This document shows positions 2,746 through 64,000 of a DNA stretch of 64,000 nucleotides, in pieces. The stretch's first letter is position 1, and every line of letters starts with the position of its first letter. Position numbers and translations under genes: made by a program. Source of the stretch: Flavobacteriales bacterium (GTDB lineage: Bacteria > Bacteroidota > Bacteroidia > Flavobacteriales_F > PHOS-HE28); assembly GCA_026129465.1 (NCBI GenBank), contig JAHCIA010000001.1:2885503-2949502 (forward strand), read 5' to 3'. The notes under the pieces were generated by a model. The model searched no databases and was not told the origin of the DNA. It saw only the letters and a program-made list of their open reading frames with translations.

Positions 2746-3417
2746 TTGAAGCGCGCCCTCCTCGTCATCCTGCTCGTCCTCGTGGCCGACCAGGCCCTGA
2801 AGGTGTGGGTGAAGCTGAACTTCTACTACGATGGCGCGGTGCCGCTCTTCGGCGATTGGGCCTACCTGCACTTCATCGAGAACCGGGGCATGGCCTTCGG
2901 CATGGAGTTCGGCGGCCGCTGGGGCAAGTTGCTGCTCACGCTCTTCCGCATCGCGGCGGTGGTCGCCATCGCCGTGGCGCTGCGCCGCATGGTGCGCGCG
3001 GGTGCGGGCACGGCCCTGGTCATCAGCGTGGCCATGATCCTCGCCGGCGCGCTGGGCAACATCATCGACAGTACGTTCTATGGGCTGATCTTCAGCCAGA
3101 GCACGCCCTTCCAGAAGGCGGTGCTCTTCCCGCCCGAGGGTGGCTATGCGCCGCTCTTCCACGGCGCCGTGGTGGACATGTTCTACTTCCCCATCTGGGA
3201 AGGGCGGCTGCCGCAATGGCTGCCGATCTGGGGAAGTGAGCATTTCATCTTCTTCCGGCCGGTGTTCAACATCGCCGATGCCGCCATCACCGTGGGCATC
3301 GGTTTGTTCATCGTGATGCAGCGGAAGGAGCGGAAGGAAGCGCTCGACCAGGCCACTGGAAGAGAAGTGGATGGGCCGGCCCCGAAACCACCAACCACAC
3401 CTCACGGTTCCGAATAG
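2746..3417 (+). CDS. lspA: lipoprotein signal peptidase (signal peptidase II)
   Basis: DQALKVWV, ENRGMAFG and FNIADAAITVG motifs with 4 TM segments. Apparent TTG start. The last 9 codons lie inside direct-repeat copy 1. Confidence 0.9.
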   Translation: MKRALLVILLVLVADQALKVWVKLNFYYDGAVPLFGDWAYLHFIENRGMAFGMEFGGRWGKLLLTLFRIAAVVAIAVALRRMVRAGAGTALVISVAMILAGALGNIIDSTFYGLIFSQSTPFQKAVLFPPEGGYAPLFHGAVVDMFYFPIWEGRLPQWLPIWGSEHFIFFRPVFNIADAAITVGIGLFIVMQRKERKEALDQATGREVDGPAPKPPTTPHGSE

Positions 3418-3498
3418 AGCCGGACGCGAAGCCCCAGCATCTGCTGGGATCCGAAACTGATACTGGAGCCGAGGTCGCCGCCGAAGCGTGTGATCGTC
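3391..3498. repeat. 108-bp direct repeat, copy 1
   Basis: 105/108 identical to 4369-4476. Mismatches at 3399, 3405 and 3429. Confidence 0.95.
3402..3498 (-). pseudogene. duplicated 3'-terminal fragment (last ~31 codons plus stop) of the OMP gene at 4380-5276
   Basis: Encodes ...ITRFGGDLGSSISFGSQQMLGLRVRLYSEP*, identical to the C-terminus of the 4380-5276 product. No upstream OMP coding sequence. Confidence 0.7.
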
Positions 3499-3516
3499 CG
3501 GATGCCCGTGGACGCA

Positions 3517-4176
3517 TCAACCTCTGTCCACCACGCAATAACAAGCGATCCCGCCGGTGCAGCACGCGTAATAGCCCGAACTGCAATTGACGCTGCAAGA
3601 GTTCCCACCGCTTTGGCTGCTGCACGCGGAAGAACCAGGTCCTCCACTGCCACATGCTTTGGGCATGCCCTCTTGTTCATTGACCGCAGTTGCGGACAGC
3701 AGTGCCCAAGCGGTCTCGTGATCGGTGGAAGCACTCTCCAAGTTCCAGCCGCCATCCAAAGACAAAATGGAAATGCCTATGACGCCAAATGTGGACGTTG
3801 TGCTGTCATCCTGCCCATCCACTGTGAACACTGTTACTTGACCACGTTCGCTAATGCACCTGACCTTGCGGCCTTCATCCACGACCTCCACGTGCCGGAA
3901 CACACCCGGTATCCCATGTGATGGAAATATTCCCTCACTGCCCTTGTCCAATACGATGGCGCGCAAAGCCAAGGCATTGTTGCCGGGGGTTGTTTCAAAT
4001 AACACGACCTGGCCAGCATGTCCCAATGGATGCGATCTCCATGGTGTGGCCATAGTCACTTCGTCCGGTGTGCGCGAAGAGGTCGCGTTTGGATCCTTGG
4101 AACATGAAGTCACAAGGGCCATGGTAGCTGACACCGACATCGCTATTTGCATCGATCTGAAAGCATTCGGCATGGC
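3517..4176 (-). CDS. hypothetical lipoprotein-like protein with a Cys/Gly/Ser-rich C-terminal tail
   Basis: Longest ORF in the cassette. ATG at 4176 gives MPNAFRSMQIAMSVSATMALVTSC|SKD (signal peptide plus lipobox-like Cys). The tail has 8 Cys in its last 45 aa. Start choice and coding status are unverified. Confidence 0.45.
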   Translation of the reverse strand, partial: AMPNAFRSMQIAMSVSATMALVTSCSKDPNATSSRTPDEVTMATPWRSHPLGHAGQVVLFETTPGNNALALRAIVLDKGSEGIFPSHGIPGVFRHVEVVDEGRKVRCISERGQVTVFTVDGQDDSTTSTFGVIGISILSLDGGWNLESASTDHETAWALLSATAVNEQEGMPKACGSGGPGSSACSSQSGGNSCSVNCSSGYYACCTGGIACYCVVDRG

Positions 4177-4275
4177 TCTGATTCTTTGATGTTGGATCAA
4201 CCATATGGATGTTCCTAGCTCAAGGCCAAACCGACTTGTATCGACAATTGCATTGGAATGGCGATGATCAAATTC

Positions 4276-4285
4276 GGGGGGGGGG
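4276..4285. repeat. G10 homopolymer (C10 on the minus strand)
   Basis: Read directly. It is the longest homopolymer I saw in the window. It lies ~100 nt upstream of the cassette ORF start. Confidence 0.95.
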
Positions 4286-4368
4286 TGATTATCAGCGTGT
4301 TGCACCATAGCCAACTTGCATGGCCAATTCTTTCGATCCGACCTGGGCAGGTCAGATCCATAGCTGCA

Positions 4369-4476
4369 CCAACCACGCCTCAAGGTTCCGAATAGAGCCG
4401 GACGCGCAGCCCCAGCATCTGCTGGGATCCGAAACTGATACTGGAGCCGAGGTCGCCGCCGAAGCGTGTGATCGTC
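4369..4476. repeat. 108-bp direct repeat, copy 2
   Basis: See copy 1. Contains the true 3' end of the OMP gene. Confidence 0.95.
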
Positions 4477-5276
4477 TGGGGCCGAAGCTCGAAGCACAGG
4501 TCCATGCGCCGCAGGAAGTCGCCCTGCCGCGCCAGGCGGAAGGCGAACCCCAGCACGGTCTGCACCGTCACCCAGCCGCCGCCCTGGTTGCGGTAGCGTT
4601 GCTCGCGCTCTTCATGCGTGTGGCGCGATGCGGAGCCGTAAGGGTAGCTCACATCGGTGGTCACCGTATGGCGCACGGTGGTCCGGGCATTGAGCACCGC
4701 ACCCGCGCCCACACCACCGCCGCCGAAGAGCGACCAGCGCGATGGGCCGGAGGTGCGGAAGACGATCGCCGCCTCCACCCCCAAGCGTTCCGCCTGGTGA
4801 CGATACTGGTACTCCTCGGAGCGTGTGCTGTCCACCACGAAGTATTGGCCACCCGTGGAATAGAGCGTATCCACCGGCACGCGATCCGTGCGTGACCAAC
4901 CCAACGTGCCGGCGGTGCCACTGGCATGGTGGATCCCTGCGCGCAACTCGGGACCGGGCTTCTCGCCGTTGTGGAAGGGGTGCAGGCCCAGCGCGATCAG
5001 AAAGGCCGGGGCGGCATCGAAGAACCACTCGCCGCGCCGCATGCCGTAGCCGCTCAGTTCCTCCGGCACCAGCGTGCTGCCAGGGGTCAACTGTCGGAAG
5101 TCCTCGGGGAAGAGATCGTACCGCTCCAAGGTGGAGCCACCGGAAAGCAGTTGCACCGATCCGAGCATGCCGGGCGGCCAGGGACCATGGGCGGAATAGT
5201 CTTGTGCCTGTATGGCTCCTGCGGCCATGGTGGCGGCCAGGACCCATGCGCAACGCCGGTGGCGAAAGCGGCTCAT
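4380..5276 (-). CDS. hypothetical outer-membrane beta-barrel protein
   Basis: Signal peptide MSRFRHRRCAWVLAATMAAGAIQAQ, then Gly/aromatic-rich alternating strands. The start ATG overlaps the asd stop (ATGA). Confidence 0.65.
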   Translation of the reverse strand: MSRFRHRRCAWVLAATMAAGAIQAQDYSAHGPWPPGMLGSVQLLSGGSTLERYDLFPEDFRQLTPGSTLVPEELSGYGMRRGEWFFDAAPAFLIALGLHPFHNGEKPGPELRAGIHHASGTAGTLGWSRTDRVPVDTLYSTGGQYFVVDSTRSEEYQYRHQAERLGVEAAIVFRTSGPSRWSLFGGGGVGAGAVLNARTTVRHTVTTDVSYPYGSASRHTHEEREQRYRNQGGGWVTVQTVLGFAFRLARQGDFLRRMDLCFELRPQTITRFGGDLGSSISFGSQQMLGLRVRLYSEP

Positions 5277-6286
5277 GCCTGGGCTGCGGCCGGGGATCCC
5301 TTCAGAAAGCCGTGCGTATGCAAGTGCTCCGCGATGCGCACCGCGTTGGTGGCGGCACCCACGCGCAGGTTGTCGGCCACCACCCACAGATTCAGCGTAT
5401 TCGGCTGGCTCTCATCCATGCGCAGCCGGCCCACGAACACCTCATCGCGGCCATCGGCCAGCAGGGGCATGGGGTATTCGTCCTTCGCGGGATCGTCGAG
5501 GAGCTCCAGACCGGGGGCTTCGCGCAGCAGGCACCGCACTTCATCCAAGGTGAAGGGTCTTTCGAATTCCACGTTCACCGCCTCGCTGTGGCCGCCGGTC
5601 ACGGGCACGCGCACCGCCGTGCAGGTCACGCGGATCGCGGGGTCCAGGATCTTGTGCGTCTCGTGCACCACCTTCATCTCCTCCTTGGTGTAGCCGTTGT
5701 CGAGGAACGCGTCGCAACGCGGGATCACGTTGCGGTCGATGCGGTGCGGGTAGGCCTTCTCGCCTTCGATGCCGGCGCGTTCGTCCTCCATCTGCCGCAC
5801 CGCCTTCGCGCCGGTGCCGGTGACGCTCTGGTAGGTGCTCACCACCACGCGCTTCGCGGTGAAGGCCCGGTGCAGTGGCGCCAGCGCGAGCACGAGTTGG
5901 ATGGTGCTGCAGTTCGGGTTGGCGATGATCCTGTCCTCTGCGGCGAGCAGGTGGCCGTTGATCTCCGGCACGATCAGCTTCTTGTCCGGTAACATGCGCC
6001 AGGCGCTGCTGTTGTCGATCACCGTGCAGCCCGCTTCCGCGAAACGCGGCGCCCATTCCAGGGAGGTGGCGCCACCGGCGGAGAAGAGCGCCAGGTCTGG
6101 CTTGCGTGCCACGGCTTCCTCCATGCCGATCACGGGCACTTCGCGGCCGCCGAAGCGCACCTTGCCGCCCACGCTGCGTTCGCTGGCCACGGCCAGCAGT
6201 TCATCCACGGGGAAGCGGCGCTCCTGGAGCACCTTCAGCATGACCCCACCGACCAGGCCGGTGGCACCTACGACCGCTACTTTCAT
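5273..6286 (-). CDS. asd: aspartate-semialdehyde dehydrogenase
   Basis: MKVAVVGATGLVGG Rossmann N-terminus, NPNCSTIQ active-site Cys motif, 337 aa. Confidence 0.95.
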   Translation of the reverse strand: MKVAVVGATGLVGGVMLKVLQERRFPVDELLAVASERSVGGKVRFGGREVPVIGMEEAVARKPDLALFSAGGATSLEWAPRFAEAGCTVIDNSSAWRMLPDKKLIVPEINGHLLAAEDRIIANPNCSTIQLVLALAPLHRAFTAKRVVVSTYQSVTGTGAKAVRQMEDERAGIEGEKAYPHRIDRNVIPRCDAFLDNGYTKEEMKVVHETHKILDPAIRVTCTAVRVPVTGGHSEAVNVEFERPFTLDEVRCLLREAPGLELLDDPAKDEYPMPLLADGRDEVFVGRLRMDESQPNTLNLWVVADNLRVGAATNAVRIAEHLHTHGFLKGSPAAAQA

Positions 6287-6346: not shown

Positions 6347-9300
6347 ATGCTCCGCACCACGCTCATCGCACTTTTCGCCGCCTGCATCGCACTGCCGGTC
6401 CGCGCCCAGTTCACCGACGGTTTCGACGACGGTGACTTCACGAACGATCCCACCTGGAGCGGTGACGCGGGCCTGTTCACCATCGTGCAGGAGGCCGGCA
6501 GCAACATGCTGCGCAGCAACAGCCCCGGCGCGGCCACCTACCACTTGAGCACACCCAGCCTACAGGCCGCCAATGCGCAGTGGGAGTTCTTCCTCAACCT
6601 GAAGTTCGCCACCAGTGGCACCAACTACGTGGACGTCTATCTGATGAGTCCGCAGGCCGATCTGATCCCACGGCCCGAAGGCTACTTCGTGCGCATCGGC
6701 GATACGCCGGACCACATCGTGCTGTACCGGCGTGTGGGCACCACCAACACCGCGCTGGCGGAAAGTCCGAACGGCACGGTGGGCAGCAGCAGCAACAACC
6801 CCTTCCGCATCAGGGTGACGCGTGACGCGGATGACCTGTGGACCCTGGCCTACCAGCCGGGTGGCACGGGCAACTTCACCCTGGCGGGCACGGCCACCGA
6901 CGCCACCTTCAACAGCTGCACGCACTTCGGCGTCCTCATCGTACAGAGCGCCGCCGCCGGGCCGATCAACAACCACTTCTTCGATGACTTCATCGTCGGC
7001 AACATCCCCGTGGATGGGACGCCGCCCACGATCGTCGGCGTGGATGTGGTGGACGCGACGCAGGTGGACGTGCGCTTCGATGAACCTGTGACGCTCCCAT
7101 CCGCCAACATCGCGGCCAACTATGCCCTGGCACCCGCGATCGCGATCAACTCGGCACAACAGGATGGCGTCGATCCCACCAAGGTGCGGCTGGTGTTGGC
7201 GCAGGCCATGCAGAACGGCACCACCTATACCCTCACGGTGAATGGTGTGGAAGATGCCGCTGGCAATGCCACGGTGGGCGCCACGGGTCAGTTCCTCTAT
7301 TTCGTCCCCGATGTGCCCGCCTACCGGGAGGTGGTGATCAACGAATTGATGCCGGACCCCAACCCACCGGTGGGACTGCCGGACGCGGAGTACATCGAAC
7401 TATTCAACGCCACCACGGACAAGTACTTCGACCTGGCGGGCTGGCGCATCACCACCCTCAGCACGAGCGCCACACTGCCCGCGCATCCGCTCGGCCCCGG
7501 CGATCACGTGGTGTTCGTGAACAACGCCCAGCTGCCCAACTTCTCCGCCTTTCCGAACGTGCGGGGATACAGCTTGAGCAACACGGCGCTGCTCAACGCA
7601 GGTACCACTGTGACACTCGAGGCGCCCGGCAACGTGGCGATCGATGTGGTGGCCTACACCTCGGATTGGTATCAGGATCCGGACAAAGTGAATGGGGGCT
7701 GGAGCCTGGAACAGGTGGATCCCTATGCGCCGTGCTCGGGCGCCCAGAACTGGCGGGCTTCGGTGGCGTCGCTCGGCGGTACACCGGGATCGCCCAATTC
7801 GGTGTTGCAGACCACACCCGATGACACGCCACCGGCCCTTGTGCAGGCGCAGGTGCTGTCCGCCAACGCGCTTCAACTCGTCTTCAGCGAAGGACTGGAC
7901 GGTGCGAGCATCCCGGGCGCCACCTACACCATCACGCCCTTCGTGCCGGTGACGTCGGTCCTCCCACAGCCGCCGATCAACCAGCTGGTGCAGGTGCTGC
8001 TCGGCGCTCCCCTGGAGGAGGGGGTGATGCACACGATCACGGTGACCGGCGTGGCGGACTGCTCGGGCAATACGATCGCCACGGCCAACAGTGCGCAATT
8101 CCTCTTCTTCACGCCCGCCGCGCCCGCCTTCCGCGATGTGGTGATCAATGAGCTGATGGTGGATCCCACGCCCACGGTAGGTCTGCCCGATGCGGAGTAC
8201 ATCGAGCTCTTCAACACCACCACGGACAAGTTCTTCGATCTGGCGGGTTGGCGCATCACCACGCTCACCACAAGCGCCACACTGCCGTCGTACGCCCTGC
8301 TGCCCGGGGAACATGTGGTCTTCGTGAACAATGCGCAAGTGCCGAACTTCTCCGCCATACCCAACGTGGCGGGATACGGTTTGAGCACCACGGCCCTGCT
8401 GAACGACGGCACCACCCTGACACTTGAAGGACCTGGCGGCGCGCCTGTGGATGTGGTGGCATACACCTCCGCCTGGTACCGCGACCCCGCCAAGAGCGAT
8501 GGGGGCTGGAGTCTGGAGCAGATCGACCCCTATCTGCCCTGTTCCGGCGCGTTCAACTGGCGCGCCTCCACAGGGATCGCGGGCGGCACGCCGGGTGAGG
8601 CCAACGCGGTGCTGCAAGTGGCGCCCGATACGGCACCGCCGGTCCTGGAGAAGATCTTGCCCCTGTCGGAAACGCTCTTGGAGCTGGTCTTCAATGAAGG
8701 GCTGGGCGGAGAGAGCGTGCTCGACGCCACGTATACCATCACGCCTTTCCTTCCCGTGAATGGCATCATATCCCTGCCACCGATCAACCAACGTGTGCAG
8801 TTGATCCTCGGTGCGGCCATGGAGATCGGCACGATCTACACGCTGGTGGTGGAAGGTGTGGACGATTGCTCCGGCAATGCGATCACTGGGGCCAACAGCG
8901 CGCAGTTCGCGCTGCCCGAAGCGCCGGAGGCGGGCGATGTGGTGGTGAACGAGGTACTGCCCAACCCGATCACCACCGGCGGTGAGTATGTGGAAGTATA
9001 CAACCGCAGCACCAAGGTGTTGAGCCTGCAGGGCTGGAAGATGGCCAACGAGAGCGGTGGGGCGGTGGCCAACCCGCGCGTCATCAGCAACGAGCCGCTG
9101 CTGCTCTTCCCGGGTGAGTACATGCTCTTCACGCGCAACCCCTTCGTCACCGCGCAGCAATTCCCTTTGGGCCGCAGCGGGCGTTTCGTCACCGTGAACC
9201 TGCCGAGCTACACGAACACCAGCGGCGTGGTGGTGGTGCTGAGCGACCAGGACGATGTGATCGACCTGTTCCGCTACGATGACAAGCTGCACTTCCCCCT

Positions 9301-9769
9301 GCTGCGCAACGTGAAGGGCGTGTCCCTGGAACGTCAGGACCCCGACCGCCCCACCGACGACCGCACCAACTGGCACAGTGCCTCGGAGTATGTGGGTTTC
9401 GGCACACCGGGCTACGAGAATTCGCAGTATGCGCCCGCCCCCCGGCCCACCGGCGAGATGACGATCGAGCCGGCCATCTTCAGCCCCGACAACGATGGCT
9501 ACCAGGACGTGCTCACCATCGCGTTCCGCTTCGACCAGCCGGGCTTCGTGGGCACCATGCGCGTGTATGACATCGCCGGGCGCGAAGTGCGCAGGTTGAT
9601 GGACAGCCAGTTGCTCGGTACGCTCGGCGCCGTGTCATGGGACGGCATCCAGGACAACGGCAGCAAGGCGCGCATGGGCCCATACATCGTCCACTTCGAG
9701 GTGTACGACCTGGCCGGCAACGTGGAGACCTTCCGCAAGACCGTCACCCTCGCCCACCGGCTCGACTGA
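6347..9769 (+). CDS. secreted multi-domain protein with three lamin-tail-like (LTD) domains, Ig-like spacers and a C-terminal FlgD-Ig/CHU_C-like beta-sandwich
   Basis: Signal peptide. Three repeats of VVINE(L/V)xPxP...EY(I/V)ExxN...GW. C-terminus reads FSPDNDGYQD...VYDIAGREV...WDG. Confidence 0.8.
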   Translation: MLRTTLIALFAACIALPVRAQFTDGFDDGDFTNDPTWSGDAGLFTIVQEAGSNMLRSNSPGAATYHLSTPSLQAANAQWEFFLNLKFATSGTNYVDVYLMSPQADLIPRPEGYFVRIGDTPDHIVLYRRVGTTNTALAESPNGTVGSSSNNPFRIRVTRDADDLWTLAYQPGGTGNFTLAGTATDATFNSCTHFGVLIVQSAAAGPINNHFFDDFIVGNIPVDGTPPTIVGVDVVDATQVDVRFDEPVTLPSANIAANYALAPAIAINSAQQDGVDPTKVRLVLAQAMQNGTTYTLTVNGVEDAAGNATVGATGQFLYFVPDVPAYREVVINELMPDPNPPVGLPDAEYIELFNATTDKYFDLAGWRITTLSTSATLPAHPLGPGDHVVFVNNAQLPNFSAFPNVRGYSLSNTALLNAGTTVTLEAPGNVAIDVVAYTSDWYQDPDKVNGGWSLEQVDPYAPCSGAQNWRASVASLGGTPGSPNSVLQTTPDDTPPALVQAQVLSANALQLVFSEGLDGASIPGATYTITPFVPVTSVLPQPPINQLVQVLLGAPLEEGVMHTITVTGVADCSGNTIATANSAQFLFFTPAAPAFRDVVINELMVDPTPTVGLPDAEYIELFNTTTDKFFDLAGWRITTLTTSATLPSYALLPGEHVVFVNNAQVPNFSAIPNVAGYGLSTTALLNDGTTLTLEGPGGAPVDVVAYTSAWYRDPAKSDGGWSLEQIDPYLPCSGAFNWRASTGIAGGTPGEANAVLQVAPDTAPPVLEKILPLSETLLELVFNEGLGGESVLDATYTITPFLPVNGIISLPPINQRVQLILGAAMEIGTIYTLVVEGVDDCSGNAITGANSAQFALPEAPEAGDVVVNEVLPNPITTGGEYVEVYNRSTKVLSLQGWKMANESGGAVANPRVISNEPLLLFPGEYMLFTRNPFVTAQQFPLGRSGRFVTVNLPSYTNTSGVVVVLSDQDDVIDLFRYDDKLHFPLLRNVKGVSLERQDPDRPTDDRTNWHSASEYVGFGTPGYENSQYAPAPRPTGEMTIEPAIFSPDNDGYQDVLTIAFRFDQPGFVGTMRVYDIAGREVRRLMDSQLLGTLGAVSWDGIQDNGSKARMGPYIVHFEVYDLAGNVETFRKTVTLAHRLD
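7313..8926 (+). repeat. in-frame tandem duplication, 2 x 807 bp (2 x 269 aa)
   Basis: Units 7313-8119 and 8120-8926 align codon for codon (~70 % aa identity by eye). Each holds one LTD and one Ig-like module. Confidence 0.85.
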
Positions 9770-40900: not shown

Positions 40901-42109
40901 TCAGCGCCGTTTGCTGAGGAAGAGCACCTCCTTTTCCGTGAGGTGCCGCCACTTGCCCCGGGGCAGGTCCTTTTTGGTGAGGCCTGCGAAGACCACGCGG
41001 TCCAGCTTGACCACCTGGTAACCGAGGGACTCGAACATGCGGCGCACGATGCGGTTGCGGCCCATGTGCAGCTTCACGCCCACCTCGCGCTTGGTGGCGC
41101 CGGTCACGAAGTCCACCTCGTCCGCCTGGGCGGGTCCATCCTCCAATTGCACGCCCTGCACCAGCTGTTGCATGTGGGCCTTGGTCACGGCCTTGTCCAA
41201 CTCCACATGGTAGATCTTCTCCGCGCCGTGGCTCGGGTGGGTGAGCTTCTTGGCCAGGTCACCGTCGTTGGTCATCAGCAGCACGCCGGTGGTGTTGCGG
41301 TCCAGGCGGCCAACGGGGTAGATGCGTTCCGGACATGCCGCGGTCACAAGGGCCATCACGGTACGGCGGTCGCGCTCATCGTCGGTGGTGGTGATGAAGC
41401 CCTTGGGTTTGTTCAGCAACACGTAACGCTTGGTCTCCATGCTGATGCGCTGGCCGCCATAGTGGACCTTGTCGCCGGGCATCACTTTGGTACCCAGTTC
41501 GGTCACCACTTGGCCGTTCACCGTCACCACGCCGGCCTTGATCAGGTCGTCGGCTTCACGGCGGCTGCAGATGCCGCTTTGGGCCAGGTAGCGGTTGAGG
41601 CGGATGAGACCATCACTGGGTGCCGGGGCCTTGTGCCGGGCACCCTTGCCATGGATGTGCCCCCGACCCACCCCGGGTGGGCGTCCGGCGCGCTGTTCCC
41701 GTTTCTCGCGTTTGCGGTCGTCCCGCTCCTGCTTGTACTGCTCCTTCACGGATGGCCGTGCGGGCCTGTCCGCCCGGCTCCCCCGGTCCGCTTCGTCCCG
41801 AGGCCTTTCACCACGGCGGACCGCTCCGGACGGGCGTCCGGAGCGCTGTTTCCCGTTCTCGCGTTCGCGGTCTTCCCGCTCCTGCTTGTACCGATCCTTC
41901 ACGGATGGCCGCGCGGGCTTGTCCACCCGGTTCCCCCGGTCCACTTCGTCCCAAGACCTTTCACCACGGCGGACCGCGCCTGGGGGCCGGCGACCGGCGC
42001 GTTTGGAGCTGCCTTGGCCATCCGGCGGTCGCGAAGCGGGTCGCTGGGCACCATTACCGCGCCCAGTGCGGCCTTGGGGGTTCCTGCGGGACTTATCTCG
42101 GTCGGTCAT
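40901..42109 (-). CDS. rluB: pseudouridine synthase (RluB/RsuA family) with an Arg-rich repetitive N-terminal extension
   Basis: S4 domain IRLNRYLAQSGICSRREAD. Catalytic motif GRLDRNTTGVLL. Confidence 0.85.
   Translation of the reverse strand: MTDRDKSRRNPQGRTGRGNGAQRPASRPPDGQGSSKRAGRRPPGAVRRGERSWDEVDRGNRVDKPARPSVKDRYKQEREDRERENGKQRSGRPSGAVRRGERPRDEADRGSRADRPARPSVKEQYKQERDDRKREKREQRAGRPPGVGRGHIHGKGARHKAPAPSDGLIRLNRYLAQSGICSRREADDLIKAGVVTVNGQVVTELGTKVMPGDKVHYGGQRISMETKRYVLLNKPKGFITTTDDERDRRTVMALVTAACPERIYPVGRLDRNTTGVLLMTNDGDLAKKLTHPSHGAEKIYHVELDKAVTKAHMQQLVQGVQLEDGPAQADEVDFVTGATKREVGVKLHMGRNRIVRRMFESLGYQVVKLDRVVFAGLTKKDLPRGKWRHLTEKEVLFLSKRR
41679..41984. repeat. tandem duplication, 2 x 153 bp (2 x 51 aa), inside the rluB N-terminal extension
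   Basis: Units 41679-41831 and 41832-41984 are ~85 % identical by eye. Confidence 0.85.
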
Positions 42110-59130: not shown

Positions 59131-62100
59131 ATGGAGCGAAGCACCCTGCGGGCCATCGCCCGGACGATCATCACGGCCTGCCTGTTGGCCGTAGCCATCT
59201 CCACCATGGCGCAGACGCCGCGCACCAAATACTGGACGGGTGGCAGCGGGGATTGGAGCGATGGCGCGCGCTGGTCCCTGACGCCTGATGGCCCGGGGGG
59301 TGCGGGCGTGCCCAGGGCCGATGAACATGTGATGATCGCGCCCGCGCGCGAGGCCGTGGTGCTGCTGCCGCGGAACGCGCAATGCCGCGACCTGCATGTT
59401 TCGGGGGAGAACGCACCGGTGACCATCGTCGGCCAGGTGCGCGATGTGCTGGAGATCTCCGGCCAGTGGAAGATGACTGGCGATGCGCGCTGGGACCATC
59501 GTGGGACCGTCCGGTTGAATGTGCGCCGGGAAGGCGTGGAGATCGACACGCGCGGCATACCCATTGGCAGCGAAGTGGTCTTCGATGGTGCCGGCGCATG
59601 GTCCTTGGCAAGCGACCTGGTCCTGCTCGATGACCGCGCCCTGGTGCTGAAGCAGGGCACGGTGATGGCCAACCGCGGCCTGGTGCGCGCAGCCGAATTG
59701 CGTTTCGACGGCAAGGCCGCGAAGTCCTTCCTCGCCGGAGACGCCATGCTGATGCTCGCGCAGCTGCCGGCCGGGCCCATGCTCAAGACCTACGTGCAGC
59801 CGGGCAATGCCACCTGGGTGGCCGGTGGCACCATGGTGAAACCGGACTTCGGGGTCGAGGTGGGCGCCGGCCCAATGGACATCAATGTATGTGGCACGGG
59901 CCCGGGGCAGACACCCTTTGTGGTGGACGCCCAGGTGGTGACCGATTACAATGGCTTTGGTGTGCGTTGCCGGGGCGAGTGCAACGCCACAGTGACGGTG
60001 ACCGTGACCGGCGGCGTGGGGGGCTTCACCTACCAATGGCTGAACGGCGGCCCGGCCACGCAGACCTGGACCACGGCCTGCGGCGGCCCACAGATCGTCA
60101 TCGTCACCGACATCGGCCAGGGCGTGTCCTGCCCGGTATCGGTCACGGTGTCCGAGCCCGCGCCCCTGGGGGTGATCTTCTTCGGGGGCGGTACGCCGCC
60201 CACCTGCCCCGATGTGTGCGACGGCTCGCGGCAGGCCCTGGGCATCGGCGGCGTGGCGCCCATCACCTACAACTGGAACAACGGCGCCGGCACCGGTTCA
60301 TCCTTCAACGGCCTTTGTCCCGGTGCCAACACCCTGGTGGTGACCGACGCGAACGGATGCCAGTTCGACACCACCTTCGTATACGACCTGCAGCCCATAC
60401 AGCCCAACCTGCTTTTCTCGGGCACCAGTTGCTTCGGGGCATGCGATGGTTCGGCGTCGGTGGCACCACAGGGAGGCACACCGCCGCACACGGTGCAGTG
60501 GTCCCCGCAACCACCCATAGGGCAGGGCACCAACAGCGTGAGCGGCTTGTGCGCTGGCAACTGGGAGGTCACGATCACGGACTTCAATGGTTGCGACACC
60601 ACGGTGCAGTTCATCATCGATGAACCGCCGCCGTTGGACATCGCCGTGATCCTGGACGATGCCAGTTGTTTCGGCGCCTGTGATGGCAGTGCCACGGTGA
60701 TCCCCTCCGGTTCGCCCGGGCCCTTCACCTTCCAATGGACGCCAGCGCCCGGCACGGGCCAGGGCACCGGTTCGGCAGCCGCGATGTGCGCCGGGGAGTA
60801 CAGTGTGCTTATCGTGGATCAGTCCACGGGCTGCGATACCACGCTGCAACTGACGATAGACTCCCCGCCCGCTTTCGAGGTGGATCCCACGGTGACCGAT
60901 GCGACCTGCTCGAACGCATGCGACGGGGTCATCTCCTGTCCGGTGATCTCCGGCGGATCGCCACCGCTGAACTTCATCTGGTCGCCGAACCCACCCCTGG
61001 GGCAGGGCACACCGACGGCCAGTGGATTGTGTCCGGGCCTTTGGTCGCTCACCATTACGGACGCGGCGGGTTGCGACACCACGCTGGTCTTCGATGTGGG
61101 CGCGCCACCGCCACTGGTGGTAGTTCCATCGCAAACGGACCTGACCTGCTACGACAGTTGCGACGGCACGGCCACCGCACCCACCAGCGGCGGCACACCG
61201 CCATACACCTTCGTGTGGTCGCCCACACCGCCATTCGGCCAGGGAACCGACTCCGCCAGTGAACTCTGCGCGGGTCTGTGGACGCTGACGATCACCGACT
61301 TCAATGGCTGCGACACCACGCTGCAGTTCTTCCTGCTGGAGCCACCTGTGCTGGAGCCGAATCTGGCCTTCACCAACGTCACTTGCGCGGGTGTGTGCGA
61401 CGGCACGGCCACGGTGGATCCCACGGGCGGCACGCCGGGCTACATCTACGAGTGGATCCCCAACCCACCACAAGGTCAGGGCACCTCTTCGGTATCTGGT
61501 CTTTGTCCGGGCGTCTGGATCGCTTCGGTCACCGATACCAATGGCTGCAAGGAGATCCGCCCCTTCACCATCGAAGATGCCACACCACTGGAAGTGGACC
61601 TGAGTGTGCAAGCGGCCACCTGTCCGGGCATATGCGATGGAAGCGCGGCGGCGAATGTCACCGGGGGTACGGAGCCTTACACGTATGTCTGGTCGCCGGA
61701 ACCGGGCGCTGGTCAAGGCACGCCAAGTGTGACCGGACTCTGCGGACAGAGCTACACGCTCACCGTGACCGACGCATTGGGCTGCGATACCACCATCGCC
61801 TTCACGGTGGATGTCCCCGATGCGATCGAGGCGAACGCGGTGATCACCACGATCCAATGCGCGGGTGACTGTGACGCGAGCATCACGCTCTCGCCCTCTG
61901 GAGGCACCGGCATCTACACGTACGACTGGTCGCCACCGCCGCCGAATGGCCAGGGCACTTCCACGGCCAGCGGGCTTTGCGCAGGCGACTGGACAGTGAC
62001 GATCGCATCGGGCGCGTGCGACACCACCATCACCTTCAACATCCCCGAACCGCCGCCGCTGGACGCGGGACTCACCACGCTCGATCCGAGTTGTGCCGGT

Positions 62101-64000
62101 GATTGCGATGGCAGCGCAACGGTCGATCCCGCCGGCGGCACACCGCCCTACACGATCATCTGGGATCCAGTGCCAACCAACGGGCAAGGCGGCACCACGG
62201 CCACCGGTCTTTGCCCCGGCAATCATGTGGTGACCGTGACCGATGACCTCGGCTGCGATGTAGTGCTGCCCTTCGAGATCCTGGGGCCGCAACCCATCCT
62301 GGTCAGCCTGGTGCTCACCGATGCCGGATGCGACAACGCCTGTCTGGGTACGGCCACGGCCACGGTGAATGGCGGACAGGAGCCCTACACCTACGATTGG
62401 CAGCCACCGCCACCCATCGGCCAGGGAACACCCAGTGTGTCCGGGCTCTGCCCGGGGCCCTACACACTCACCGTGTCTGATGCCGCTGGCTGCGACACCA
62501 CGGTCACGTTCATCATTCTGCAGCCCTCGGGCATCATGGCGGTTCCCACCGTCACCGACGCGAGCTGTTTCGACAACTGCGATGGGGCCATTGATGTGGC
62601 CACCATTGGCGGATCCCCACCCTACACGTTCACCTGGACGCCCGATCCTCCAGCGGGACAGGGCACGCCCAACGTGAGCGGATTGTGTCCCGGCGTCTGG
62701 ACGCTCTTCATCGCCGACGCGATCGCCTGCGACACCACGTTGCTGATCACGGTGGGCGCGCCAACGCCGATCATGCCGAATGAAAGCTCCACCAATGAAA
62801 GTTGCGCCGGACCGTGTGATGGTACCGCCACGGTGACGCCCACCGGTGGTGATGGTTCGTACATCTTCGTCTGGTCACCGCAACCGCCGAACGGGCAGGG
62901 CACATCTACCGCCAGTGGCTTGTGTCCCGGAAGTTGGGGCGTGACGATCACCGATGCTTCGGGATGTGATACCACGGTCACATTCCTGATCCTGGAACAG
63001 CAACCCATCGATGCCGGGCTGGTGACCACGGACGTGATCTGCCATGGCGATTGTGATGGCACGGCGAGCGTATCACCCACCGGCGGTGTGGCGCCATTCA
63101 CCGTCCTGTGGTCGCCGGAACCCGGCGCGGGCCAGGGCACGCAGAACGCCACGGGCCTCTGCCCCGGCGCATGGAGCGTGACGATCACCGACTTCGCGGG
63201 TTGCGACACCACGCTGCTCTTCAACATCAACGAACCACCGGCGATCACGCTTGACCTTGTCAACACGGCAGCGGATTGCTTCGATCCATGCAGCGGCACC
63301 GCCACGGTGGACGCTGCCGGTGGCACGGGCGTCCTGGTCATCCTGTGGCAACCCGATCCCGCCACGGGCCAGGGCACCGCCTTCGCCACGGGGCTGTGTG
63401 CGGGCACGCCCTACACAGTGACGATCACCGACGAGAACGGCTGCACCATCTCGCAGGGATTCACCATTGAACCGTTCGACGAGATCCAACCCAACAGCAG
63501 CAGCACACCGGCGAGCTGCCATGACGCCTGCGATGGCACCGCCACCGTGGGCCCCATCGGTGGACAGGAACCATACGCCTATGTGTGGTCGCCGGAGCCG
63601 GGTGCGGGTCAGGGCACGACGCAGGCCACAGGCCTCTGCCCGGGGGTGACGCAGGTGACCATCACGGACGCCAACGGTTGCGAAACCGTCGCTTCGATCC
63701 TGATCCTCGCGCCCGAGCCGCTTGATGTACAGGCGACGGTGACGGACCTGGATTGCGGTGGTGAATGCAACGGAAGCATCGTGCTGGATGCACAAGGCGG
63801 TACGCCACCCTACACCTACAGTTGGTCGCCGGTTCCACCCAACGGACAAGGCGACAACGTGGCATTCGACCTGTGCGCCGGTACTTGGAACGTGACCGTG
63901 ACCGACGCCAATGGCTGTGTGACCACAGCGGGCTTCGACATCAATGAACCTCCCGCACTGGTGGTGACCGTCGCCATCACGCCCAGCGAATGCCAGCTCT
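59131..64000 (+). CDS. giant SprB-repeat cell-surface (gliding-adhesin-like) protein, N-terminal 1623 codons (3' end outside window)
   Basis: I hand-translated frame 1 from ATG 59131 through about 61610 with no stop. The absence of any frame-1 + ORF in the track beyond that is consistent with the frame staying open to 64000. Signal peptide, WTGGSGDWSDGARW N-domain, then repeated C-x3-C-(D/N)-G...GG.PPYT..W.P.P..GQGT...GLC.G.W.VT.TD..GC.T units. Confidence 0.85.
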   Translation, partial: MERSTLRAIARTIITACLLAVAISTMAQTPRTKYWTGGSGDWSDGARWSLTPDGPGGAGVPRADEHVMIAPAREAVVLLPRNAQCRDLHVSGENAPVTIVGQVRDVLEISGQWKMTGDARWDHRGTVRLNVRREGVEIDTRGIPIGSEVVFDGAGAWSLASDLVLLDDRALVLKQGTVMANRGLVRAAELRFDGKAAKSFLAGDAMLMLAQLPAGPMLKTYVQPGNATWVAGGTMVKPDFGVEVGAGPMDINVCGTGPGQTPFVVDAQVVTDYNGFGVRCRGECNATVTVTVTGGVGGFTYQWLNGGPATQTWTTACGGPQIVIVTDIGQGVSCPVSVTVSEPAPLGVIFFGGGTPPTCPDVCDGSRQALGIGGVAPITYNWNNGAGTGSSFNGLCPGANTLVVTDANGCQFDTTFVYDLQPIQPNLLFSGTSCFGACDGSASVAPQGGTPPHTVQWSPQPPIGQGTNSVSGLCAGNWEVTITDFNGCDTTVQFIIDEPPPLDIAVILDDASCFGACDGSATVIPSGSPGPFTFQWTPAPGTGQGTGSAAAMCAGEYSVLIVDQSTGCDTTLQLTIDSPPAFEVDPTVTDATCSNACDGVISCPVISGGSPPLNFIWSPNPPLGQGTPTASGLCPGLWSLTITDAAGCDTTLVFDVGAPPPLVVVPSQTDLTCYDSCDGTATAPTSGGTPPYTFVWSPTPPFGQGTDSASELCAGLWTLTITDFNGCDTTLQFFLLEPPVLEPNLAFTNVTCAGVCDGTATVDPTGGTPGYIYEWIPNPPQGQGTSSVSGLCPGVWIASVTDTNGCKEIRPFTIEDATPLEVDLSVQAATCPGICDGSAAANVTGGTEPYTYVWSPEPGAGQGTPSVTGLCGQSYTLTVTDALGCDTTIAFTVDVPDAIEANAVITTIQCAGDCDASITLSPSGGTGIYTYDWSPPPPNGQGTSTASGLCAGDWTVTIASGACDTTITFNIPEPPPLDAGLTTLDPSCAGDCDGSATVDPAGGTPPYTIIWDPVPTNGQGGTTATGLCPGNHVVTVTDDLGCDVVLPFEILGPQPILVSLVLTDAGCDNACLGTATATVNGGQEPYTYDWQPPPPIGQGTPSVSGLCPGPYTLTVSDAAGCDTTVTFIILQPSGIMAVPTVTDASCFDNCDGAIDVATIGGSPPYTFTWTPDPPAGQGTPNVSGLCPGVWTLFIADAIACDTTLLITVGAPTPIMPNESSTNESCAGPCDGTATVTPTGGDGSYIFVWSPQPPNGQGTSTASGLCPGSWGVTITDASGCDTTVTFLILEQQPIDAGLVTTDVICHGDCDGTASVSPTGGVAPFTVLWSPEPGAGQGTQNATGLCPGAWSVTITDFAGCDTTLLFNINEPPAITLDLVNTAADCFDPCSGTATVDAAGGTGVLVILWQPDPATGQGTAFATGLCAGTPYTVTITDENGCTISQGFTIEPFDEIQPNSSSTPASCHDACDGTATVGPIGGQEPYAYVWSPEPGAGQGTTQATGLCPGVTQVTITDANGCETVASILILAPEPLDVQATVTDLDCGGECNGSIVLDAQGGTPPYTYSWSPVPPNGQGDNVAFDLCAGTWNVTVTDANGCVTTAGFDINEPPALVVTVAITPSECQL
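59950..64000 (+). repeat. array of ~17-18 divergent SprB repeats, period ~237-240 bp (79-80 aa)
   Basis: C-x3-C motifs recur near 59968, 60207, 60429, 60666, 60906, 61147, 61384, 61621, 61858, 62092, 62329, 62563, 62803, 63040, 63278, 63517, 63754 and 63990. Confidence 0.85.

Follow-up and report, generated by a model that had tools for sequence, protein, structure and literature searches.

A single foreign gene between duplicated copies of the lspA and outer-membrane protein gene junction in a Flavobacteriales bacterium

Introduction

Several described processes place foreign DNA in a bacterial chromosome between direct repeats, or beside a displaced piece of a host gene, and they are the natural points of comparison for the locus studied here. 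This is a cassette of 868 bp, holding one gene for a Cys-rich, lipoprotein-like protein, which lies between lspA and an outer-membrane protein (OMP) gene and is bracketed by two copies of their 110-bp junction. It was found in 64,000 nucleotides of a Flavobacteriales bacterium (assembly GCA_026129465.1, contig JAHCIA010000001.1, positions 2,885,503 to 2,949,502 of the forward strand), hereafter the window, and all coordinates refer to that stretch. The closest described process is Campbell-type insertion-duplication, in which the insert is flanked by direct repeats of the shared segment, the genes stay whole, no element-encoded enzyme is involved and the event is reversible. The window resembles this pattern, with the differences that here the event is a natural one, that it concerns a single chromosomal-type gene and not a plasmid, and that the homology in the window looks native to the same lineage. 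In E. coli conjugation, recircularised molecules that integrated by a single crossover left duplications of 109-950 bp, and this outcome was more frequent than true one-ended illegitimate events (PMC3240628).

Two further systems involve pieces of host genes. In homology-facilitated illegitimate recombination, foreign DNA arrives joined to part of a conserved gene from the neighbourhood, a situation that an asd fragment at a related locus (L017, described below) also suggests; however, the reported events have usually cost the recipient about 1 kb of its DNA and left microhomology of 3-10 bp (PMC3240628), whereas here recipient DNA has been duplicated. Its one-ended form has been proposed to explain the displaced 3' fragments in the toxin-immunity arrays of type VI secretion systems (T6SS), Rhs proteins and contact-dependent inhibition (CDI) systems (PMC5361080). 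The prophages e14 and phage 21, inserted in icd, are flanked by the working end of the gene and, at the far side, by a displaced pseudo-end (icdC) whose differences are mostly synonymous (PMC13626634), and L017 is a close analogue of this architecture. Unlike our cassette, which measures 0.87 kb, carries one gene and no integrase, and occupies a site that has not been reused, these prophages are at least 15 kb long and have their own integrase and a fixed att site.

The cassette can also be set against classical small mobile units. Like an integron gene cassette, it consists of a single promoter-poor ORF (open reading frame) with a boundary a few bases past the stop codon, falls in the size range of 0.9-1.9 kb and encloses no enzyme. 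In contrast to integron cassettes, whose repeats are attC sites, the empty sites prove that the repeats here derive from host genes, and each cassette stands alone at a different locus; no attC-like structure, attI, integron integrase or cassette array was seen in the window. With transposons, insertion sequences (IS) and miniature inverted-repeat transposable elements (MITEs) it shares a direct target duplication on either side of the insert, but theirs are 2-15 bp, of fixed length and accompanied by terminal inverted repeats or conserved ends. We found neither a transposase nor conserved ends, and the duplication, which the original prediction had rightly called far longer than ordinary transposon target duplications, is 110 bp here and 57, 132, 154, 246 and 302 bp at other loci.

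Results

Two direct repeats, copy L at 3389-3498 and copy R at 4367-4476, are identical at 107 of 110 positions with an offset of 978 bp. Identity is lost sharply on both sides, ending at 3388/4366 on the left and 3499/4477 on the right; the mismatches lie at 3399/4377 (A/G), 3405/4383 (C/A) and 3429/4407 (A/C), and the identical core shared by the two copies is 69 bp. The original prediction had described a repeat of 105/108 positions (3391-3498 and 4369-4476); it is real, but its extent has to be corrected, the true repeat being two bases longer at the left. It is the sole dispersed repeat of this kind in the window, where the remaining repeat families are tandem or belong to coding domains.

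Each copy carries the ends of two convergent genes, as originally proposed and as the ORF list and our reading of the sequence confirm: on the + strand the last 9 codons and stop of lspA (stop at 3415-3417 and 4393-4395), and on the - strand the last 31 codons and stop of the OMP gene (stop at 3402-3404 and 4380-4382). The outcome of the duplication is that lspA ends in the left copy and the OMP gene in the right copy, and both are whole. The intact lspA (signal peptidase II; 2746-3417, + strand) has its tail in copy L, which otherwise holds a non-functional copy of the OMP 3' end, a displaced pseudo-fragment of 31 codons and stop (3402-3498, - strand; translation ...ITRFGGDLGSSISFGSQQMLGLRVRLYSEP, then the stop) with the rest of the gene missing. 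Copy R supplies the working 3' end of the intact OMP gene (4380-5276, - strand, 298 aa) together with a non-functional lspA tail (4367-4395). The foreign DNA lies between the copies, at 3499-4366, and is absent from all relatives examined.

The locus was followed into related genomes, where contigs keep the same gene order (dnaG, a cation-efflux gene, an OmpA-domain gene, an LTD-domain protein gene, asd, the OMP gene, lspA, a dksA-like gene and ileS) and carry OMP orthologues 89%, 67%, 45% and 43% identical to that of the window (42-45% for the most distant). In five related lineages (L009-L013, L093 and L094) the OMP gene and lspA converge directly, with a single copy of the junction and no insert. 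The two genes overlap by 16 nt in L009-L013 and by 30 nt in L094, and are separated by a 3-nt gap in L093; the claim that they originally converged and overlapped is borne out. Since the relatives' locus has a single-copy junction, an insertion event can be inferred, and the empty sites show what had been predicted, namely that the junction was duplicated as some 870 bp of foreign DNA with one gene for a Cys-rich lipoprotein entered. Judged from the aligned loci, they show a true insertion with duplication of the 110-bp junction, after the split from L009, the closest sampled relative, which is mostly 86-99% identical at the nucleotide level per 150-bp window over the compared region. Because the site is empty in so close a relative, the 978 extra bases are, on this comparison, a gain at about the strain or species level. 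A search for relatives in species-representative genomes by means of the OMP protein found none.

A scan of divergence from L009, aimed at a long imported anchor beside the insert, found the OMP gene (4477-5330) more diverged (86-94% identity per 150 bp) than asd and lspA (94-99%), an excess that is also expected for a surface protein; either fast surface-protein evolution or import by recombination could explain it. The lspA tail immediately to the left of the repeat shows 7 differences in 15 nt from L009.

The interior differs in composition from everything around it. At 54.0% GC, the segment 3499-4368 is the lowest point of the window, where all 870-bp segments have a mean of 64.0% with a standard deviation of 2.0%; just 0.1% of them are equally low, and every one of these overlaps the interior. 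GC at third codon positions (GC3) is 0.58 in the cassette gene against 0.81-0.88 in the dksA, lspA, OMP, asd and LTD genes. On both counts the interior is set apart from the window, in agreement with the AT shift first noted by hand, and these two contrasts mark the insert as foreign.

Independent assemblies support the flanks and the branching that a duplicated core must cause. Logan contigs (k=31) from SRR12908352, SRR12908353 and SRR12908354 are 100% identical to the window, and the flank contigs each carry their own copy-specific bases. On the lspA side the contigs stop precisely at 3459 (3429+30), and the asd/OMP contig begins precisely at 4447 (4477-30), because the de Bruijn graph must branch where the 69-bp core occurs twice; the presence of the cassette in these assemblies is read from such contig break positions only. 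In addition, the OMP protein of the window is recorded on a contig of 3,862,203 bp. An exact look-up of the cassette ORF, in ten alternative starts or frames, found none in a collection of 15 billion proteins, in which the flanking genes of the same strain are present. Apparently the cassette gene escaped gene calling, possibly on account of a composition that is atypical of the genome.

The three mismatches between the copies can be polarised with the empty-site relatives, which give G, C and C as the ancestral states. The A at 3399 is derived in the left copy and synonymous in the working lspA; the A at 3429 is also derived in the left copy, inside the dead OMP fragment; and the A at 4383 is derived in the right copy, where it is synonymous in the working OMP gene, its His-to-Gln effect being confined to the dead lspA tail. 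Moreover, the left edge CCAACCAC, at which L009 has CCCCCAC, is lineage-specific and common to both copies. While the original description of the mismatches as synonymous or non-synonymous was correct, the conclusion drawn from it, that the extra copy came from a functional OMP orthologue in a donor, is not supported in the window. Because each change is neutral in the copy where it arose and the lineage-specific bases are common to both copies, drift after a duplication within the lineage would explain the three sites equally well. The idea of a donor orthologue was not wrong in kind, as it is supported at the related locus L017.

Both copies contain, in their identical core, a near-perfect 16-nt palindrome, CCCAGCATCTGCTGGG (3433-3448 and 4411-4426). 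It lies within the coding end of the OMP gene, just past the lspA stop, and is largely conserved in relatives; it may be the stem of a bidirectional terminator shared by the two genes.

The cassette gene (3517-4173, - strand, 218 aa) fills 657 of the 868 bp of the insert and runs in the same direction as asd and the OMP gene. The remainder of the insert is made up of the 18 bp that follow the stop codon and a 193-bp upstream region (4174-4366, 49% GC). A small hairpin read from the sequence, GTGGAC-N12-GTCCAC with a 6-bp stem (3508-3531), spans the stop, 9 nt before the junction with copy L. The N-terminus of the protein, MPNAFRSMQIAMSVSATMALVTS followed by Cys, includes at residues 16-24 a signal (...ATMALVTS, then Cys) that fits the lipobox [LVI][ASTVI][GAS]C when the translation is inspected by eye, and many homologues from Bacteroidota also have a Cys at this position. 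We therefore describe the product as lipoprotein-like, with a predicted location that is either secreted or lipid-anchored. At its C-terminus stands a conserved domain with eight Cys residues, C.SGGPGS.SCS..NSCSV.C.SGYYACC...C.CV, and the protein keeps 19 of the 19 invariant columns of the family alignment A2.

That alignment represents a large family. A word-based search gave 12 homologues, and a profile search gave 1,461 representatives of clusters (defined at 50% identity) at E<=1e-3 and 751 at E<=1e-10, mostly of 210-260 aa and matched over their full length. Among species-representative genomes, members occur mainly in Bacteroidota (Flavobacteriales, Chitinophagales, Cytophagales, Bacteroidales) and Acidobacteriota, and also in Gemmatimonadota and a few other groups. 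The family behaves as an accessory gene that is often transferred. No donor is known for the cassette, because its nearest relatives are just 30-36% identical over the full length. A variant with a type IX secretion C-terminal domain is found at L079, and L084 encodes a short form of 104 aa, whose leader we take to be NVEALA-like, an assignment that Pfam did not confirm. At another locus (L005, 3241-6672) a family member is divergent from a radical-SAM / PqqD gene pair and two genes without a Pfam match, a context typical of peptide-modification clusters; this is possibly a hint that the Cys-rich domain is modified, or it is a coincidence.

Searches with the cassette itself returned little. 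The cassette protein and the antisense ORFs had no match in Pfam, NCBIfam or PADLOC, and the AlphaFold2 (AF2) model of the protein, a mediocre all-beta model with a predicted local distance difference test (pLDDT) score of 65, had no fold match in the PDB. By blastn the cassette DNA matched no plasmid or phage. JGI metagenomes held no close protein-level relative, and the repeat core, sought there as a DNA pattern, was not found; a protein-pattern search of IMG/VR viral contigs found no family member. Scans of the insert detected no Rfam family and no tRNA, and its ORFs, searched against Pfam, included no recombinase, integrase or transposase; terminal inverted repeats were likewise absent, and a sigma-70-type promoter scan of the cassette gave no convincing match. 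The first reading of this DNA as one plausible gene with a G10 tract (4276-4285) and no integrase or transposase is thus confirmed throughout. The tract reads C10 on the coding strand and lies about 100 nt upstream of the start of the cassette gene; it could be a slipped-strand phase-variation tract or a spot prone to sequencing error.

We then compared 82 loci of the family (642 kb, for the most part metagenome-assembled contigs) each with itself. At six of them direct repeats tightly enclose a segment with the family gene, which is accompanied by one regulator gene at L014 and L057. Five (L014, L017, L029, L047 and L057) were examined in detail and all have AT-shifted interiors, and at four (L014, L017, L029 and L057) the repeats are pieces of neighbouring host genes. 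At L014 the repeat (302 bp, 85% identical) is a whole small ORF without a Pfam match, both copies of which are intact, and the islet also holds an XRE regulator. At L017 the repeat (a blast match of 241 bp at 87%, about 246 bp on alignment) is the 3' part of asd. At L029 it is the end of a convergent SDR gene (57 bp, 86%), around an interior of 32% GC with flanks of 47%, and at L057 it is the end of a gene read by eye as murA together with intergenic DNA (154 bp, 90%), around an islet that also holds a LytTR regulator. The repeat at L047 (132 bp, 90%), whose source was not identified, encloses a family gene broken by stops, and that at L059 (80 bp, 87.5%; source not checked) encloses an interior that is not AT-shifted. 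A rough Fisher test gave p=0.0015 for 6/82 family genes against about 6/585 other genes of the same loci. AT shift relative to the flanks is also general in the family (53 of 71 loci, median -3.4 GC points).

In these islets the downstream junction lies 10-76 bp past the stop of the family gene, often directly behind a hairpin or terminator, and the upstream boundary varies between 193 and 974 bp. Comparison of the six cassettes revealed no conserved termini, no inverted repeats and no shared upstream or junction DNA, and the targets they adjoin are different (asd, murA, an SDR gene and a small ORF without a Pfam match). Repeat pairs at L037, L046, L070 and L086 were set aside as repeats of the REP (repetitive extragenic palindromic) type or of paralogues and not insertion brackets. 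We also considered whether L082 and L084, with exact terminal overlaps of 119 and 121 bp, were circular forms of the cassette, and rejected this: their genes are ordinary chromosomal ones (cydB, an FtsX-like permease, an O-antigen-ligase-like gene), and the lengths of the overlaps match typical assembler k-mers.

The ileS-dksA-lspA-OMP-asd neighbourhood of the window's cassette holds a family member at two other loci as well. At L079 (Flavobacterium urocaniciphilum) one is directly downstream of ileS-dksA-lspA, in a GC trough. L017 is a related Flavobacteriales genome, with an asd gene 84% identical to that of the window and the same LTD-asd-OMP order, in which the family gene stands between asd and the OMP gene, about 1 kb from the window's insertion site. 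There the cassette interrupts the end of asd. The upstream copy provides asd with a different C-terminal tail, and the original end survives as a displaced fragment whose frame stays open up to a stop that immediately precedes the OMP start. The last ~21 asd codons (in the region 4410-5860) have been replaced by an unrelated tail of 25 residues, and the upstream boundary lies about 114 bp past the asd stop. Aligned without gaps over 64 codons, the two asd copies have 8, 0 and 13 differences at first, second and third positions; with random decay, 0 of 21 differences at second positions would have a probability of (2/3)^21, about 2e-4. From this absence of second-position changes there is good evidence that the two copies diverged as working genes in different genomes, and that the cassette would have come attached to a piece of a donor asd.

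Of the genes that flank the cassette, lspA matches Pfam PF01252 (Peptidase_A8, E=3.4e-34) and its exact protein is present on Logan contigs L002-L004. The OMP gene has no Pfam match. Its product has a predicted signal peptide and a barrel of about 12 beta strands: the AF2 model (pLDDT 79) shows a signal helix and ~12 long strands, and its top fold matches in the PDB are all outer-membrane barrels, with E values down to 1.8e-5 and low TM (template modelling) scores, so that on the model OMP seems a fair name for this 298-aa gene. Its start overlaps the stop of asd (ATGA), which encodes aspartate-semialdehyde dehydrogenase (5273-6286, - strand; Pfam PF01118/PF02774; exact protein on Logan contig L001) and is the upstream gene of the asd-OMP(-cassette) direction.

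Four other features of the window were recorded. A DksA/TraR-type zinc-finger protein (1757-2716, + strand) has an N-terminal extension of ~190 residues, rich in Lys, Ala and Pro and made of repeats with a 15-bp periodicity; the extension has a weak Pfam match to the histone-H1-like HC2 family and differs in length between relatives (proteins of 313-365 aa). The LTD/Big_5 protein (6347-9769, + strand, 1,140 aa) contains three internal copies of a unit of ~805 bp (70-79% identical), and the gene is shorter (~870 aa) in L017, L093 and L094. A 153-bp tandem duplication at 41668-41973 is 88% identical and has no obvious cause. Finally, 60400-63700 is a long run of ~237-bp Cys-containing coding repeats (…CDGTATV…GGTPPYT..W…GQGT…GLC…), typical of a giant repetitive surface protein.

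Discussion

The analysis of this locus shows how a single foreign gene has come to lie between two overlapping genes while both were kept whole, and the question is which process placed it there. The explanation that we prefer, to which we give about an even chance, is that host homologous recombination in the form of insertion-duplication, and not an enzyme encoded by an element, was responsible. Circular or circularised DNA carrying the cassette and some 110 bp matching the junction would integrate by a single crossover of the Campbell type; a route with one homologous and one illegitimate end would be topologically equivalent, and either would duplicate exactly the shared segment. Pieces of conserved neighbouring genes would thus act as handles for the entry of the cassette, which would explain why family members recur beside the same housekeeping genes. 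The gene, often transferred, would recur as small islets with such duplications in other genomes, and the cassette has probably been kept because its product is useful. Recombination between the two 110-bp repeats could delete the cassette again and restore the empty site.

Several observations are consistent with insertion-duplication. The insert is flanked by a contiguous native chromosomal segment that is single-copy in relatives, and the neighbouring genes are of the housekeeping type, over ~10 kb on the asd side (L001) and among syntenic genes on both sides in L009. The repeats (110 bp in the window and 57-302 bp at the other family loci) are long enough for homologous recombination and fall in the size range obtained experimentally, 109-950 bp (PMC3240628). 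That repeat length varies to this extent, that the targets are unrelated and that the ends and junctions share nothing speaks against a dedicated enzyme or att site. The original prediction had left the cassette as att-like or recombination-mediated, of a kind that could not be assigned. Its first option is not supported, given the empty site in five lineages, the unrelated targets, the 57-302-bp range and the lack of conserved ends; its second, in the form of insertion-duplication, has been described before (PMC3240628). On this explanation the locus shows a variant of a known process, applied to a family without a Pfam or NCBIfam model, and the recurrent association is so far unreported.

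A number of points weigh against insertion-duplication by the host. Published one-ended events usually delete recipient DNA and do not duplicate it (PMC3240628). Neither a donor nor a circular form nor a read of the empty site was seen, and plasmids, phages, IMG/VR and JGI metagenomes yielded no match to the cassette; how the first circle carrying host sequence would have arisen is also unexplained. In the window the copies share lineage-specific bases, and duplication in situ, with no homology brought by a donor, fits equally. Moreover, the downstream junction lies 10, 18 and 20 bp past the stop in the three closest cassettes, with several just behind a hairpin, a regularity that a random illegitimate joint does not predict. 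Most of the comparison loci are, finally, metagenome-assembled contigs.

It is this regularity of the downstream junction that keeps alive a second explanation, which we consider unlikely: a dedicated, non-autonomous mobile cassette, moved by a trans-acting enzyme that makes staggered breaks 57-300 bp apart, so that the repeats would be true, if long, target-site duplications. The unit would end just behind the stop or terminator, and in one version its intermediate would be a reverse-transcribed transcript. The consistent position of the downstream junction and the variable upstream boundary are as such a unit predicts, and the recurrence of flanking duplications around one protein family, in six genomes and the window, argues in the same direction, as do the members at L017 and L079 in the same neighbourhood and the lineage-specific bases found in both window copies, which are expected if one molecule was duplicated. 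Yet the cassettes have no conserved termini, inverted repeats or shared non-coding sequence; the length of the duplication varies five-fold, unlike that of any known transposase; tightly bracketing repeats are missing at 76 of the 82 surveyed loci; no enzyme emerged as a candidate; and at L017 the codon-position pattern indicates that one copy came from another genome and is not a target duplication. We know of no bacterial process that makes target duplications of 100-300 bp, and a literature search on such long target duplications found only eukaryotic retroelements and casposons. A broader proposal would make the 8-Cys family the hallmark of a so far unrecognised class of non-autonomous single-gene cassettes, present in Bacteroidota and neighbouring phyla and inserted beside the 3' ends of conserved genes, with 57-300-bp duplications and a fixed downstream boundary, by a trans-acting or transcript-derived mechanism that resembles no known bacterial transposition; this would be a long shot.

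The cassette could instead be a remnant or satellite of an integrase-type island, its repeats being attL and attR, with the integrase deleted or with mobilisation in trans as in cis-mobilisable elements (CIMEs); this we regard as distinctly improbable. The architecture matches icd/e14/icdC, where likewise the element separates a working gene end from a displaced pseudo-end (PMC13626634). The replacement of 3' ends typical of such islands is also seen here, in that lspA and the OMP gene are each completed by one copy and asd of L017 gains a new tail. Known att regions of this type include repeats of such a length (~110 bp). On the other hand, the insert, 657 of whose 868 bp are occupied by the gene, contains no integrase or fragment of one, and none is annotated among the neighbours (~10 kb on the asd side in L001, both sides in L009), although a distant recombinase may act in trans on the window's cassette. 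The site is empty in five relatives and has not been reused, and the six other cassettes, at different targets and also lacking integrases, would need an independent clean deletion each time.

Template switching during replication is in our view a comparably doubtful source of the locus. The nascent strand would leave at 3498, copy ~0.87 kb of foreign DNA, re-enter 110 bp upstream and copy the junction again, by fork stalling and template switching or by microhomology-mediated break-induced replication. An insertion with a duplication of variable length and no element ends is a classic product of such events; both window copies come from the same lineage, as template switching would have it, and the site is a head-on convergence of two genes. 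It is, however, poorly documented for the capture of foreign DNA in bacteria, and it leaves both the donor-type divergence at L017 and the recurrence of one gene family unexplained. Least probable by far is an assembly artefact or chimeric contig in which the cassette does not truly stand between the two copies: none of the ten candidate ORFs is in the 15-billion-protein collection although same-strain flanking genes are, but the copies differ at three positions and so are no k-mer overlap artefact, the OMP protein lies on a 3.86-Mb contig, the breaks in three independent Logan assemblies fall at the points expected of a 69-bp core present twice, the cassette gene is intact and belongs to a genuine family, and other genomes show the same architecture.

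Conclusion

The window, for which the empty site is also known, offers a clean example from nature of a single foreign gene gained between two overlapping genes. A simple insertion at the overlap would break one of the two, and the duplicated junction solves this problem. The analysis also brings to light a large protein family without a Pfam or NCBIfam model, of about 1,460 clusters, in which a signal or lipoprotein N-terminus is combined with an 8-Cys domain. If the dedicated-cassette explanation were true, a new kind of mobile cassette would be at hand. If recombination by the host is the true explanation, pieces of housekeeping genes would serve as 'handles' that move an accessory gene between related genomes without the machinery of a mobile element, and gene flow by this route would be overlooked by programs that look for islands and transposons.

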